Part shown: positions 1 to 4,480 of the stretch, piece by piece
Numbering within the stretch: position 1 is the first letter of the stretch
Layout: the number at the start of each line of letters is the position of its first letter
Origin: Naegleria gruberi
Taxonomy: Eukaryota
DNA: 4,480 nt
NCBI GenBank assembly: GCA_000004985.1
Contig: GG739184.1
Reading direction: 5' to 3' (one strand)
Made by a program: the position numbers and the translations under genes
The notes under the pieces: model-generated
Databases searched by the model: none
What the model saw: the letters and a program-made list of their open reading frames with translations, nothing else
Told to the model about the DNA's origin: nothing

Positions 1-328
1 TCAAAGTGATTACGTTAAAAATTGAATTTTGGCAACCCAGCACCTAATAATCCAAATAGGAACATGGTTACACCATAATAATCCTTACTCATGAACATGA
101 ACAATTTCTTCTAAATTCATACATTTTTTTGAATCACCTTGTTTAGAACCATAGCACACACGCAAGCCTCATTGTTATTTGCAAGCTATAACACAGCGTA
201 GCTCTCCTTAATCCACATACGCAGCATTGTCCACTAATTTGTTGTGATTTGAAGTTTGATCGTAAATTGTTGAAAATTATTCAACACTCAAAAACAAATA
301 ACGACAAACAAATACACTCAACACTGGG
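1..328 (+). promoter_or_regulatory. Non-coding 5' flank of the downstream gene (presumed promoter plus 5' UTR)
   Basis: No ORF of meaningful length on either strand; on the minus strand all three frames hit stops before position 1. It directly precedes the ATG at 329, which follows an in-frame TAA at 299..301. A TATAA-like element sits at 187..191, a T7 run at 124..130, and an imperfect palindrome TTGAAAATTATTCAA at 270..284. The transcription start is not determinable from sequence. Confidence 0.3.
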
Positions 329-400
329 ATGCAAAAGTCTTTCTTATTGATCTCTCTTCTCTGTGTGATTGCGTTCTTGCACTTGTTCCCTGTTGAGGGA
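329..400 (+). other. Predicted N-terminal signal peptide (about 24 aa)
   Basis: MQKS followed by an uninterrupted hydrophobic stretch FLLISLLCVIAFLHLF, then PVEG-G (small residues at -3/-1, a plausible signal-peptidase site). The cleavage position is approximate. Confidence 0.55.
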
Positions 401-663
401 GGCACTGGACAAACTATTGTTGGTGATTTGAACATTGATCCTGTATTGGGATTAGATGCTAGTGAGACCAGATTTAGGTACCTCAGTTCCTTCTGTTTAG
501 ATCCAAGAAATGGCGATATGTACGTAGCTGATGACCATTTCAACAAGGTTTTCAAGATTGATCATCAAACCAATGTTGTCTCTTGGTTTGCTGGTAATGG
601 TGTTGAAACCAAATGTGCTAGAACTGGACCAAACTATTGCAACGACAAAACAGACAAATTATC
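329..663 (+). CDS. 5' end (N-terminus) of a large secreted NHL-repeat / EGF-repeat protein; the coding sequence runs into the N-run
   Basis: ATG 329 is the first ATG after the in-frame stop TAA at 299..301 (frame 2). The translation MQKSFLLISLLCVIAFLHLFPVEGG... is a classic signal peptide. It is followed by an NHL-blade-like segment (...LDPRNGDMYVADDHFNKVFKIDHQTNVVSWFAGNG) and then VETKCARTGPNYCNDKTDKL. This second segment has the same AG-x-G...C...C...KL linker architecture seen repeatedly after the gap (e.g. VAGSAGNCASGTCATFSASATDSTAKL). The ORF is still open at 663, where the Ns begin. The ORF-track entry 329..2143 is real only up to 663. Confidence 0.75.
470..661 (+). repeat. First NHL-type beta-propeller blade plus the Cys-pair linker of the next blade (pre-gap)
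   Basis: The GDMYVADDHFNKVFKID motif (Tyr codon at 521) matches the G-x-[IV]-Y-[VF]-A-D-x-x-N/H-x-[IV]-R-K-I blade core repeated after the gap. The following segment KCARTGPNYC (Cys codons at 614 and 638) matches the C-x(4-7)-C linker found ahead of later blades. Confidence 0.55.
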
Positions 664-2110
664 NNNNNNNNNNNNNNNNNNNNNNNNNNNNNNNNNNNNN
701 NNNNNNNNNNNNNNNNNNNNNNNNNNNNNNNNNNNNNNNNNNNNNNNNNNNNNNNNNNNNNNNNNNNNNNNNNNNNNNNNNNNNNNNNNNNNNNNNNNNN
801 NNNNNNNNNNNNNNNNNNNNNNNNNNNNNNNNNNNNNNNNNNNNNNNNNNNNNNNNNNNNNNNNNNNNNNNNNNNNNNNNNNNNNNNNNNNNNNNNNNNN
901 NNNNNNNNNNNNNNNNNNNNNNNNNNNNNNNNNNNNNNNNNNNNNNNNNNNNNNNNNNNNNNNNNNNNNNNNNNNNNNNNNNNNNNNNNNNNNNNNNNNN
1001 NNNNNNNNNNNNNNNNNNNNNNNNNNNNNNNNNNNNNNNNNNNNNNNNNNNNNNNNNNNNNNNNNNNNNNNNNNNNNNNNNNNNNNNNNNNNNNNNNNNN
1101 NNNNNNNNNNNNNNNNNNNNNNNNNNNNNNNNNNNNNNNNNNNNNNNNNNNNNNNNNNNNNNNNNNNNNNNNNNNNNNNNNNNNNNNNNNNNNNNNNNNN
1201 NNNNNNNNNNNNNNNNNNNNNNNNNNNNNNNNNNNNNNNNNNNNNNNNNNNNNNNNNNNNNNNNNNNNNNNNNNNNNNNNNNNNNNNNNNNNNNNNNNNN
1301 NNNNNNNNNNNNNNNNNNNNNNNNNNNNNNNNNNNNNNNNNNNNNNNNNNNNNNNNNNNNNNNNNNNNNNNNNNNNNNNNNNNNNNNNNNNNNNNNNNNN
1401 NNNNNNNNNNNNNNNNNNNNNNNNNNNNNNNNNNNNNNNNNNNNNNNNNNNNNNNNNNNNNNNNNNNNNNNNNNNNNNNNNNNNNNNNNNNNNNNNNNNN
1501 NNNNNNNNNNNNNNNNNNNNNNNNNNNNNNNNNNNNNNNNNNNNNNNNNNNNNNNNNNNNNNNNNNNNNNNNNNNNNNNNNNNNNNNNNNNNNNNNNNNN
1601 NNNNNNNNNNNNNNNNNNNNNNNNNNNNNNNNNNNNNNNNNNNNNNNNNNNNNNNNNNNNNNNNNNNNNNNNNNNNNNNNNNNNNNNNNNNNNNNNNNNN
1701 NNNNNNNNNNNNNNNNNNNNNNNNNNNNNNNNNNNNNNNNNNNNNNNNNNNNNNNNNNNNNNNNNNNNNNNNNNNNNNNNNNNNNNNNNNNNNNNNNNNN
1801 NNNNNNNNNNNNNNNNNNNNNNNNNNNNNNNNNNNNNNNNNNNNNNNNNNNNNNNNNNNNNNNNNNNNNNNNNNNNNNNNNNNNNNNNNNNNNNNNNNNN
1901 NNNNNNNNNNNNNNNNNNNNNNNNNNNNNNNNNNNNNNNNNNNNNNNNNNNNNNNNNNNNNNNNNNNNNNNNNNNNNNNNNNNNNNNNNNNNNNNNNNNN
2001 NNNNNNNNNNNNNNNNNNNNNNNNNNNNNNNNNNNNNNNNNNNNNNNNNNNNNNNNNNNNNNNNNNNNNNNNNNNNNNNNNNNNNNNNNNNNNNNNNNNN
2101 NNNNNNNNNN
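664..2110. other. Run of 1447 N (assembly gap or hard-masked sequence) interrupting the gene
   Basis: Directly visible. The non-round length (1447) suggests masked real sequence or a size-estimated gap rather than a conventional fixed spacer. Nothing inside can be annotated. Confidence 0.99.
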
Positions 2111-2111
2111 G

Positions 2112-4480
2112 AGGTGGTCAGCTACTGCAGCAACGTTCTCTAATTCTATCATAGTTGCAGTTGACAGCAATGACAACATCTACGTTATGGACAATGGTGT
2201 ATATGTTTTAAGAATGATTAGAGCTAGCAATGGAAATATAGAAAGAGTGGCAGGTACCTATACCACTATCTGTTCTGACGGCAATTGTGGAGATGGAGGA
2301 AGTGCACTCAGTGCCAAATTGACAGCTGTAAAGAATATTGAAATTCATCCAATTACTGGTGACATTTACTTGGCGGAAGCTAACAGAATCAGAAAAATTA
2401 GTGGTGGTATTATCAGTACAGTTGTTGGTGCTTTTGGAAGAAATTATGATTCTTTAGTCACTGGTGCCTGGGCAAATCCGTTGGATGTTGGTATTGCCCC
2501 AACAAGAATTTCCTTCTCACCTACTGGTCAATTGTATTTCAATGATGGTAGTTCTTATTGGTCAATGCGTACTTTGAAAGATGGATTGGTTAGACCTGTC
2601 TCTGGATTTTTAATTTCCACAACAGACAGGTTTAATTACAATGGAGAAGACTTGCTACCAACTAAGGTAAAACTCTCAAATCCAACTTCAGTGTTTTTGG
2701 ACTCGAATGGCAATGTTTTTGTTGGTTGTTCTGGAACCTCAAGTACAACTGGAGGTGAAAATGATGCCAGAATTGTAAAGGTTGATGTCAATTCCAATAC
2801 TGCTTCCACATTCATTGGAACTTTAACTGAGGCTTCAGCAATTTCTGAAAACACAATTAGAACCAAAACTTCACTCAAACCATATGCTTCAATCTATACA
2901 GGTCTTTATACACCCTTCGGAATTCATGTAACTCCAAACGGAGATGTATACTTTGCAGATCCAAGTCGTTATGTAATCAGAATGTACAATGCAACCCTGG
3001 GAACTGTTAGTACAATTGCAGGTACTATGAACACAGTTTGTACCGATAGTATTTGTGATAATGGTCAACCAGCACTAAGTGCTCATTTCAAACTCCCGAC
3101 CTCAATATTCGTCACCGACGATGGAACTATTTATGTCTCTGATACTCAATTGCATCAAATTAGAAAAATTCAGAATGGAATTATTACAGCAATTGCTGGA
3201 ACTGGAACTCAATGCACCACTGCAGGATCTAATACTTGCGATCATGGTTCTACATCTCCATTGCGCGTTGACTTGTATACTCCAATGGGTATTTATGTTA
3301 CCAAGAGTGGTGAAGTATATTTTGCAGATACTTCCAACCATAAGGTTAGAAAAATCTCAAGTGATGGCCTCACCATAACTACAGTGGCCGGATCAGCTGG
3401 AAATTGTGCCTCTGGAACTTGTGCCACTTTCAGTGCATCCGCTACAGACTCAACTGCAAAACTCTTCTATCCAACTGGAGTTGTTGTCAATGAAACATCC
3501 GGTTCAATTTACATTGCAGATCAAGGAACTCACACCATTAGAGTAGTTTCTTCAAATGGTTCAATGAGTGTTTATGCTGGTACTTTCCCAGGCATGGCGT
3601 TCAATGATGCTGGAGCCACTCAATTCAGTGCAGAAGGATCATCAAAGTACCTTAATTTACCAACAAGTATTTTCCTTAAAGATAACTCAATTTATGTGAC
3701 AGAGCCAGTTTTTGGAAGAGTTAGACGTGTGACTCAAAACTGTAGAGCTGGATATGGTGGCGATAATTGTGAAACTCCTATTTGTTTTGAAATTCTGGCA
3801 ACTTATTCAACCGTTTGTTCAGGAAATGGTGCATGTATTGAAAGTGACACTTGTCAATGTAATGCTGGAAGTTCAGGAAGTAATTGTTCTCAAACAACTT
3901 CCAATTGTAGATCTGGTTTCTATGGAAGTAATTGTGAAATTTCCAATTGTTATGGAAAGTTTTCAAATGATTCATCTGTTTGCAGTGGGCATGGCCGTTG
4001 CAATTCAACTGATTCCTGCTCTTGTTCACCTAACTATTTTGGAGGAAATTGTCAAATTACAACATGTTTCAATACTCAAAGTAATGACAGCTCAGTATGT
4101 TCTGGACATGGTGTATGCTCATCCTATGATCAATGTTCATGTAATTCTAATTATTATGGATACAATTGTAATATTACAACATGTGGAGGAGTATTTTCAA
4201 ATGACTCTAGTGTCTGTAGTGGTAATGGAAATTGTGTTGATTTTAACCAATGTAATTGTGTACAAAACTCTGGTTCCAATTGTGCTGAACCAATAATCCC
4301 AACAATCTACTGTTTTGGAATTCTTGCCAATGATTCAAATATTTGTTCTGGAAATGGTCAATGTAATGCAACTGATATCTGTATTTGTGATTCTCTATTC
4401 TCTGGTTTCGATTGTTCGAATGATACCTCTAATGCTAACAATAACAGTACTTTTAATAACAATACCAACACTGACAATAG
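2112..4480 (+). CDS. Continuation of the same secreted protein: NHL beta-propeller blades, then tenascin-type EGF-like repeats, then an Asn/Thr-rich tail. It is open at both ends (5' into the N-run, 3' past the window edge)
   Basis: I translated frame 0 by hand codon by codon from 2112 to 4480. That gives 789 sense codons and no stop. The product shows strongly periodic, recognisable domain content: nine blades with a Y-[VIF]-x-[DE] core, then CSG[HN]GxC...CxC...GxxC EGF repeats. Every other long ORF the track lists in this span is in frame +1 or antisense. The track omits this ORF, presumably because it contains no in-window stop and its start is upstream. Confidence 0.85.
2163..3737 (+). 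repeat. Array of nine NHL-type beta-propeller blade repeats (183-192 nt, i.e. about 62-aa, period)
   Basis: Blade-core Tyr/Phe codons fall at 2181, 2367, 2535, 2718, 2949, 3132, 3318, 3510 and 3693. The corresponding motifs are DNIYVMD, GDIYLAE, GQLYFND, GNVFVGC, GDVYFAD, GTIYVSD, GEVYFAD, GSIYIAD and NSIYVTE. Most are followed by x-x-[IV]-R-K-I and G-x-I-[ST]-T-[IV]-A-G. Several are preceded by A-L-S-A-x-[LF]-x-x-P, which is the GDGG-x-A-x-x-A-x-L-type NHL consensus. The Pfam NHL (PF01436) assignment comes from motif recognition and has not been computed. Confidence 0.7.
3741..4415 (+). repeat. Tenascin-type EGF-like repeat array: five six-cysteine repeats plus two two-cysteine half-motifs
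   Basis: The translation reads CRAGYGGDNCETPI, then CFEILATYSTVCSGNGACIESDTCQCNAGSSGSNCSQTTSN, then CRSGFYGSNCEISN. Three 39-aa units follow, beginning at 3948, 4065 and 4182 (CYGKFSNDSSVCSGHGRCNSTDSCSCSPNYFGGNCQITT, CFNTQSNDSSVCSGHGVCSSYDQCSCNSNYYGYNCNITT and CGGVFSNDSSVCSGNGNCVDFNQCNCVQNSGSNC...). A fifth unit starts at 4311 (CFGILANDSNICSGNGQCNATDICICDSLFSGFDC). This is the C-x(n)-C-S-G-x-G-x-C-x(4,5)-C-x-C-x(5,8)-G-x-x-C spacing typical of tenascin/teneurin-type EGF. Confidence 0.8.
4416..4480 (+). other. Asn/Thr/Ser-rich low-complexity segment. The coding sequence continues past the window edge
   Basis: Frame-0 translation SNDTSNANNNSTFNNNTNTDN with no stop before 4480. The sequence is built from aat/aac/act codons and contains several N-x-[ST] sequons. 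Confidence 0.6.

Follow-up and report, generated by a model that had tools for sequence, protein, structure and literature searches.

The locus and its features

The scaffold GG739184.1 of Naegleria gruberi, analysed here over its whole length of 4480 bp (the window) and interrupted by an assembly gap of 1447 N, probably encodes most of a single N. gruberi gene, whose product would be an uncharacterised cell-surface glycoprotein combining tandem NHL propellers with a stalk of EGF units. On the plus strand, one open reading frame (ORF) begins at position 329 and enters the gap (fragment A), and a second runs from 2112 to the end of the scaffold (fragment B). The frame from 2112 contains 789 codons and no stop (P = 1.6e-24 from base composition), while the remaining two frames of 2112-4480 contain 81 and 22 stops. 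The GC content at third codon positions (GC3) is 0.23 and the long ORF is free of introns, both of which fit an N. gruberi source. The top database match, P0001 (database proteins are cited by such numbers), is recorded as ‘predicted protein, partial [Naegleria gruberi]’ with 735 aa and is 100% identical to the window; taxonomic placement by protein search, which a preliminary description of this DNA had set as a check, thus returned an N. gruberi protein. The features are as follows.

329-400, plus strand: start codon and N-terminal hydrophobic leader, aa 1-24 (MQKSFLLISLLCVIAFLHLFPVEG), a predicted cleavable signal peptide
455-592, plus strand: first NHL blade, fragment A aa 43-88 (blade model 17.8 bits; maximum of 200 shuffles 4.7)
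593-663, plus strand: beginning of blade 2, including a Cys-pair loop (GNGVETKCARTGPNYC...); coding, ORF open up to the gap
664-2110, no strand: assembly gap, a run of 1447 N; predicted to hold blades 3-9 in full, together with the end of blade 2 and the beginning of blade 10
2112-2603, plus strand: three NHL blades, fragment B aa 1-164 (blade model 13.2, 61.5 and 52.5 bits)
2604-3749, plus strand: six NHL blades, aa 165-546, membrane-proximal six-bladed propeller (blade model 63-81 bits)
593-640, 2253-2288, 3021-3056, 3198-3239 and 3390-3422, plus strand: Cys-pair loops, G-x-C-x(4-8)-C, one in fragment A and four in fragment B
3741-3770, plus strand: two-Cys half-EGF linker at the propeller-to-EGF junction, C544...C553, NCRAGYGGDNC, read from the sequence
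3783-4415, plus strand: EGF stalk, delineated by regular expression, Cys count, Pfam and hairpins in the structural model
3783-3887, 3948-4052, 4065-4169, 4182-4283 and 4311-4415, plus strand: five complete six-Cys EGF units (regular expression)
aa 599-608, plus strand: second two-Cys half unit, NCRSGFYGSNC (regular expression)
4416-4480, plus strand: Asn/Ser/Thr-rich low-complexity tail (SNDTSNANNNSTFNNNTNTDN); the ORF runs off the scaffold end
1-328, plus strand: 5' flank, presumed promoter and 5' untranslated region; GC content 0.34, several stops upstream of 329 in the frame of the ORF

NHL blades and propellers

The propeller portion of fragment B was recognised by two Pfam models: TEN_NHL matched with E = 7.3e-28 and 98 bits (cut-off 27.1), its best stretch being aa 358-545, and NHL matched with E = 4.5e-18 and 64.7 bits (cut-off 20). 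Nine NHL blades of 57-71 aa each span nt 2112-3749. A hidden Markov model (HMM) built from eight of these blades recovered all nine, with scores of 13-81 bits. The three blades at 2112-2603 are presumed to be the last three of a middle propeller; each has four strands in the structural model, with a predicted local distance difference test score (pLDDT) of 87-94 in the core. We infer that exactly the six blades at 2604-3749 close one ring.

An AlphaFold2 model was made of fragment B. It comprises nine four-stranded blades followed by EGF-type β-hairpins, with a mean pLDDT of 73.6 and blade cores mostly above 90. When the model was compared with the Protein Data Bank (PDB) by Foldseek, about 360 columns aligned to the designed six-bladed protein Pizza6 and to PknD of M. 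tuberculosis, with template-modelling scores, TM(target), of 0.80-0.84. The next ranks were taken by NHLRC2, SOQ1 and teneurin NHL domains, and LRP4, LRP6 and megalin were also recovered. With repeated four-stranded blades, a match to the NHL model and fold matches to six-bladed rings, the protein falls within the NHL-repeat β-propeller superfamily.

At the start of several blades, the usual ‘GFSGDGGPA’ loop is replaced by a Cys pair, G-x-C-x(4-8)-C, which probably forms a disulfide that staples the loop. None of the seven eukaryotic paralogs has this Cys-pair loop, and of 60 homologues examined, 58 lack it; it is present in three blades of the bacterial NHL protein P0026. A multihaem cytochrome lies in the gene neighbourhood of P0026. 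A lone unpaired Cys, C206 (‘VGCSG’), lies in blade 4.

The EGF stalk and the asparagine-rich tail

The propellers are followed by a stalk of EGF units. In fragment B, the Pfam models EGF_Teneurin (E = 6.5e-9, 36.2 bits, cut-off 24.3) and EGF_2 (E = 9e-9, 36 bits, cut-off 22.1) both scored above their cut-offs. The long multi-repeat EGF_TEN model reached 42 bits in the window, under its cut-off of 65; it exceeds the cut-off in the paralogs P0002, P0003 and P0032. The EGF region contains 34 Cys when C544 is counted (33 from aa 547), corresponding to five six-Cys units and two two-Cys half units. The complete units are EGF-like domains as these are usually defined, having cysteines C1 to C6 with the C4-x-C5 spacing and Pfam matches above cut-off. 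In four of the five units, an N-D-S sequon lies inside an unusually long C1-C2 loop. A tandem-repeat scan of the window yielded just a trivial 15-bp repeat of 1.9 copies, which argues that the EGF units are old duplications rather than recent DNA repeats.

Beyond the last EGF unit, Asn makes up 10 of the 21 residues encoded by nt 4416-4478 (48% vs a background of 8.2%; binomial P = 2e-6). The tail carries four N-x-S/T sequons and has a pLDDT below 50. Stalk and tail together hold 12 of the 15 N-x-S/T sequons. By analogy, a glycosylated juxtamembrane linker probably starts with this tail.

The junction between the last blade and the stalk (fragment aa 541-558, approximately nt 3735-3785) is uninterrupted sequence about 1.6 kb from the gap. 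At this distance from the gap, and with no break in the sequence, the order of NHL followed by EGF is no assembly artefact. The paralog P0028 has a junction motif, ‘CQSGYGGANC’, resembling the NCRAGYGGDNC of the window.

The N-terminal leader

The ATG at 329 is the first start following an in-frame stop on the plus strand. The ORF opens with MQKSFLLISLLCVIAFLHLFPVEGG, in which a short Lys-containing n-region precedes a hydrophobic core of 17 residues, and the Kyte-Doolittle maximum over 19 residues is 2.45 (aa 1-26). At the putative cleavage site, MQKSFLLISLLCVIAFLHLFPVEG|G, the sequence reads V at -3 and G at -1. Comparable N-terminal hydrophobic segments are found in the paralogs P0002, P0003, P0028 and P0108. 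By these heuristics (hydropathy and the -3/-1 rule), the leader resembles a signal peptide with a predicted cleavage site. The parts list of the preliminary description (signal peptide, NHL repeats, EGF repeats and Asn-rich tail) is therefore complete, all four parts lying where it had placed them, the leader on heuristic grounds.

Probable continuity of the gene across the gap

Next, we consider whether fragments A and B belong together. The public model P0001 joins them by a splice that reads ‘...SWFA|VAVDSND...’ and jumps the gap, its donor being GTAATG (594) and its acceptor CATAG (2152). No stop, however, interrupts the ORF between 594 and the gap or between 2112 and 2152, and each of these stretches resembles NHL-blade sequence. 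As both flanks are open blade sequence and the two fragments share the Cys-pair loop, the annotated 594-2152 intron is very probably an artefact of the gene caller bridging the gap, and A and B very probably belong to a single gene.

The number of propellers is not directly countable, because positions 664-2110 are Ns. It can be estimated from the size of the gap: with blades averaging 62 aa, its 482 codons correspond to about 7.7 blades, which would almost exactly complete blade 2, add blades 3-9 and begin blade 10. The most likely total is thus 18 blades, or three six-bladed propellers. In the paralogs, the blade HMM counted six blades in P0003 and in P0028, 12 in P0108 and 18 in P0006, and detected 11 in P0002 and 16 in P0016. 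Compared with the public model, the true protein probably has some 480 more residues, in addition to the missing C-terminus. An attempt to bridge the gap by scanning metagenome contigs for exact matches to the 35 nt preceding it gave no match.

Alternatively, the scaffold could carry two tandem paralogous genes with their boundary hidden in the gap; A would then supply the 5' end of the first gene, and B the 3' part of the second. Tandem members do occur elsewhere: P0012 and P0028 have consecutive locus tags, and the contig L003, described below, carries two. At the nominal gap length, moreover, the two ORF pieces are one base out of frame; this offset is uninformative, because gap sizes in draft scaffolds are estimates. 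Finishing the propellers of A (about five blades) and B (about three) would take approximately 1.4 of the 1.45 kb available, leaving no room in the gap for a stalk, an anchor, an intergenic region and a second leader. In addition, A and B share a Cys-pair loop that eukaryotic paralogs lack. We therefore consider two genes unlikely, and treat the window as one gene.

A heterolobosean family with a shuffled stalk

The order of leader, NHL blades and EGF array is common to P0032 and P0108 of N. gruberi, P0003 and P0028 of N. lovaniensis, P0006 of N. fowleri, and P0002, a protein from an environmental contig on which a eukaryotic exostosin gene adjoins. The claim that NHL precedes EGF is thus borne out both by the continuous junction and by these six proteins. 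A database protein search found no ortholog above 31% identity. In a search with the last two blades and the stalk, all named matches came from Heterolobosea (N. gruberi, N. lovaniensis and Acrasis kona). The preliminary description had assigned the DNA to a non-metazoan eukaryote, noting codon usage of amoebozoan or protist kind; the non-metazoan eukaryote holds, given the 100% match to an N. gruberi protein, and the lineage is heterolobosean, not amoebozoan.

Two of the paralogs, P0006 and P0032, end in a transmembrane helix with a basic cytoplasmic tail, as judged by hydropathy. P0108, P0002, P0016 and P0003 have a terminal hydrophobic segment that is compatible with a glycosylphosphatidylinositol (GPI) signal or a terminal transmembrane helix. 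The anchors of the paralogs are preceded by linkers rich in S, T, P and N. The family pattern is a leader, NHL propellers whose blades come in multiples of about six, an EGF array and an anchor. Leader, blades and EGF array are seen in the window, where the blade total depends on the gap, and the anchor is seen in the paralogs alone. The membrane anchor that had been proposed beyond the window is, by analogy with these proteins, a reasonable expectation beyond the scaffold end, although the C-terminus itself is absent from the window.

The same EGF array also occurs behind RCC1 propellers, receptor kinases, a papain domain and other heads in Naegleria, Acrasis and environmental relatives. For example, P0138, P0161, P0171, P0179, P0185 and P0209 carry an EGF_TEN/EGF_Teneurin stalk with RCC1-type propellers or a Ser/Thr kinase (Acrasis kona ‘kinase/receptor’). 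In Heterolobosea the array thus appears to serve as an ectodomain stalk of general use. These sequences support a multigene heterolobosean family in which a generic EGF stalk has been shuffled onto varied heads, in agreement with the domain shuffling that had been suggested for this protein. The published literature was searched for Naegleria NHL, NHL-EGF or teneurin-type proteins and nothing relevant was found. Public databases already list the protein itself as a partial prediction without a name, and for the Naegleria NHL-EGF family we found no paper.

Three further observations were made on family members. First, in P0032 (1362 aa) some 200 unannotated residues separate the EGF array from the transmembrane helix and end ‘FTCMFFDANINSWSDTGV...QCLTTHLTTFSVIDI’. 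Residues ~1237-1285 of P0032 match the Pfam GPS model end to end with E = 9e-4 and 20.1 bits, just below the cut-off of 22.5; the HL|T site is kept and one of two Cys pairs is lost. From its sequence, P0032 may carry a GAIN/GPS-like module. Second, in P0012 of N. lovaniensis (C9374_011612) the order is reversed: a basic N-terminus of unrelated sequence is followed first by EGF and only then by NHL. P0012 adjoins P0028 (C9374_011613) on the same contig. It looks like a chimeric gene model joining the tail and head of tandem family members, not a true inversion. Third, the unannotated and highly fragmented assembly GCA_037189345.1 (L002, JBBCKJ010003460.1; L003, JBBCKJ010012907.1) contains many NHL-EGF genes, two or more per contig of 4-6 kb, at a GC content of about 44%; L003 carries two. 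This suggests a tandem expansion of the family in another eukaryote.

The remainder of the scaffold

No ORF of at least 40 aa lies wholly inside the 5' flank (1-328). A minus-strand ORF of 92 aa (277-555) overlaps the 3' end of the flank and is antisense to the coding sequence. Among the small minus-strand ORFs in 1-330 nothing was persuasive. A short minus-strand ORF at the left edge of the scaffold (15-104) would yield a hydrophobic peptide (…MSKDYYGVTMFLFGLLGAGLPKFNF). It might have arisen by chance, or might be exon 1 of a neighbouring gene that is transcribed divergently. A scan of the window against Rfam detected no RNA family.

Proposed function and alternative explanations

Taken together, these features suggest how the protein might act. 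The signal peptide would send it into the endoplasmic reticulum and then be cleaved, and the EGF stalk would acquire N-glycans and disulfides. The tandem six-bladed NHL propellers, most likely three, would constitute a ligand-binding head, which the five EGF modules and the Asn/Ser/Thr-rich linker would hold away from the membrane as a rigid stalk. By analogy with the paralogs, a downstream transmembrane helix or GPI-type signal would anchor the protein. The head might then bind an extracellular ligand, for which bacterial prey, other cells and a substrate are candidates. On these analogies, a receptor for adhesion or recognition is likely, rather than an enzyme. The adhesion or self/non-self recognition role put forward in the preliminary description is purely conjectural. 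According to a proposal by Tucker et al. (PMC3278476), the earliest teneurin served a choanoflagellate in binding prokaryotic prey, and a similar prey-binding role is plausible by analogy in a bacterivorous amoeba.

Several points weigh against this reading. The length of the gap is an estimate and the ORF pieces are one base out of frame, and a two-propeller protein or an intron inside the gap is possible. The C-terminus is missing, and the protein could be secreted rather than anchored. In the structural model, the overall mean pLDDT is 73.6, the linkers have low confidence and the tail is disordered or of low confidence. Finally, NHL propellers occur in enzymes too.

The last point leads to an alternative in which the protein is a membrane-tethered or secreted propeller enzyme (a lactonase, a lyase or a strictosidine-synthase-like protein). 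There are weak Pfam matches to SGL (E = 0.0025) and Vgb_lyase (E = 0.006), paralogs match Str_synth/SGL, and many bacterial homologues are labelled ‘sugar lactone lactonase YvrE’. However, the SGL match scores 17.9 against a cut-off of 26.3 and the Vgb_lyase match 15.9 against 50, single blades are covered in each case, and the ‘YvrE’ labels are automatic. An NCBIfam scan gave merely far-sub-threshold matches to the ScyF/ScyE propellers. No catalytic motif was identified, no residue-by-residue search having been made. Arrays of several propellers carried by EGF stalks typify receptors with a binding function, for instance teneurins and the LRP family, both recovered by the fold search. Since the matches to enzyme families are sub-threshold and confined to single blades, and propeller plus EGF ectodomains are typical of binding receptors, binding is favoured over catalysis, and an enzyme is about as improbable as two genes.

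Bacterial contamination, or a very recent and unassimilated bacterial transfer on a tiny orphan scaffold, is far less probable still: the scaffold measures merely 4.5 kb and its propellers are 31-33% identical to bacterial proteins vs 32-36% to Naegleria paralogs, but the EGF array is eukaryotic in type with named relatives that are all heterolobosean, the GC3 of 0.23 fits an AT-rich eukaryote, and paralogs of the same architecture are found on N. gruberi scaffolds of 138-696 kb as well as in N. lovaniensis and N. fowleri. The source is not bacterial, as the EGF part and the closest relatives with the full architecture are heterolobosean. A giant-virus origin, which had been thought less likely from the outset, was rejected, as none of 2.9 M viral contigs contained a relative.

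If the receptor reading is true, Naegleria and its relatives have lineage-specific receptors with multi-propeller NHL heads on EGF stalks. These would form a candidate adhesion or prey-recognition toolkit of bacterivorous amoebae, of which the pathogen N. fowleri has a member (P0006). The public gene model (735 aa, partial) is very probably wrong, since it splices over the gap and probably omits about 480 residues and the C-terminus. The protein is otherwise ordinary for its lineage, a putative propeller-plus-EGF surface receptor made of familiar modules in a lineage-specific arrangement.

Comparison with known systems

The nearest relatives of the window are the Naegleria NHL-EGF proteins. 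They have in common with it the order of leader, one to three six-bladed propellers, EGF_Teneurin/EGF_2 array and anchor, at an identity of 29-34% (25-36% in MAFFT rows). The window differs from them as a divergent paralog in which the ‘GDGGPA’ loop is swapped for Cys-pair loops in several blades, and in having just five EGF units and an Asn-rich tail.

Teneurins, both metazoan and choanoflagellate, and bacterial teneurin-like proteins resemble the window in having a six-bladed NHL propeller; the eukaryotic teneurins share with it an EGF array as well, matched by the same Pfam models. Teneurins are type II proteins with the order transmembrane helix, EGF, Cys-rich region, TTR, FN-plug, one NHL propeller, YD shell and toxin-like C-terminus (PMC13018210), whereas the window has a leader, several NHL propellers and then EGF. 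A type II topology with EGF before NHL is contradicted by this order and by the C-terminal position of the transmembrane helix in paralogs. No RHS/YD Pfam match was found in the 789-aa fragment at E ≤ 1, nor any in six full-length paralogs, which upholds the earlier remark that YD/Rhs repeats are not visible. Neither the visible window sequence nor the paralogs gave Pfam matches to FN-plug, TTR or ABD/Tox-GHH. The window does match the TEN_NHL propeller model, yet this is non-discriminating, as the model matches thousands of bacterial NHL proteins.

One could still suppose that the protein is a genuine teneurin relative, with its YD shell and other core domains lying out of sight, inside the gap or past the window, and with an inverted order that would be an artefact. 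The names of the Pfam models (‘Teneurin NHL’ and ‘Teneurin EGF’) and the best PDB sequence match (‘Teneurin-like protein’) would speak for it. This match (9ifo and 9pt5, E = 1.5e-29) is however to the Bacillus inaquosorum teneurin-like protein (TLP), a bacterial protein, and runs via the NHL domain alone; Drosophila Ten-m follows at 6.5e-13, no better than NHLRC2. When the EGF region alone was compared with PDB sequences, no significant teneurin or tenascin match was obtained, the best matches being a mastigoneme protein (1e-3) and reelin. Moreover, the NHL-to-EGF junction is continuous, NHL blades lie on both flanks of the gap, and the 482 codons are too few for a YD shell plus the missing blades. 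Full-length paralogs contain just NHL, EGF and an anchor, and their leader and C-terminal transmembrane helix indicate type I, not type II. A teneurin relative is thus very improbable. Because the blades are generic, the EGF region has no teneurin or tenascin match in the PDB and the core domains are unseen, the sequences point to two generic extracellular modules shared between the window and teneurins, with no specific kinship. The teneurin-like framing of the preliminary description hence reads too much into the resemblance, the blades being nearer to bacterial NHL arrays and TLP (1.5e-29) than to animal teneurin (6.5e-13). If this reading is correct, the co-occurrence of NHL and EGF should not be taken for a sign of teneurin ancestry, as these generic modules have been combined more than once.

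Bacterial multi-propeller NHL proteins (for example P0007 of Elusimicrobia, P0008 of Spirosoma and P0004 of Kofleriaceae) share the blade consensus with the window, at 29-33% identity over a single propeller, and the PknD sensor domain is similar in fold (TM(target) 0.80). The consensus, GDGGPAT.A.L..P.GVAVD..GN.YIAD..N.RIRKV...G.ITT.AG, is common to Naegleria proteins and hundreds of bacterial NHL proteins. In a BLAST search with a single propeller, bacterial proteins matched at 31-33% identity with E values down to 3e-39, and Naegleria paralogs at 32-36%. Unlike the window, the bacterial NHL proteins are without EGF stalks and carry type IX secretion system (T9SS; PF18962), Big or FN3 sorting or anchoring domains. 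Since the blades are of bacterial type and no closer eukaryotes outside Heterolobosea were among the top matches, the NHL array is compatible with an ancient bacterial origin. Teneurins are themselves thought to join a bacterial-type module with a eukaryotic EGF and transmembrane part (PMC3278476, PMC13018210). On a bolder and rather unlikely reading, Heterolobosea may have repeated this step independently, joining a bacterial-type NHL array, possibly from prey, to an EGF stalk and anchor and expanding the product as receptors for prey, substrate or cells, with at least P0032 perhaps adding a GAIN/GPS-like autoproteolytic juxtamembrane module. Such proteins would be analogues of adhesion receptors beyond the animals.

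Members of the low-density lipoprotein (LDL) receptor family such as LRP4, LRP6 and megalin resemble the window in being type I receptors in which tandem six-bladed propellers serve as ligand-binding heads, followed by EGF modules. A fold search with the whole model recovers this family (8s9p, 8jxh, 9i3v and 8ffe). Its propellers are nevertheless of the YWTD/LDL-B type, without a sequence-level relationship to those of the window, and the superposition is poor, with a root-mean-square deviation of 20-35 Å. In the LDL-receptor family, EGF modules alternate with the propellers and there is no single C-terminal stalk. In conclusion, the closest functional analogies to the N. gruberi protein would be surface receptors with propellers on EGF modules, namely the LDL-receptor family and the teneurins.

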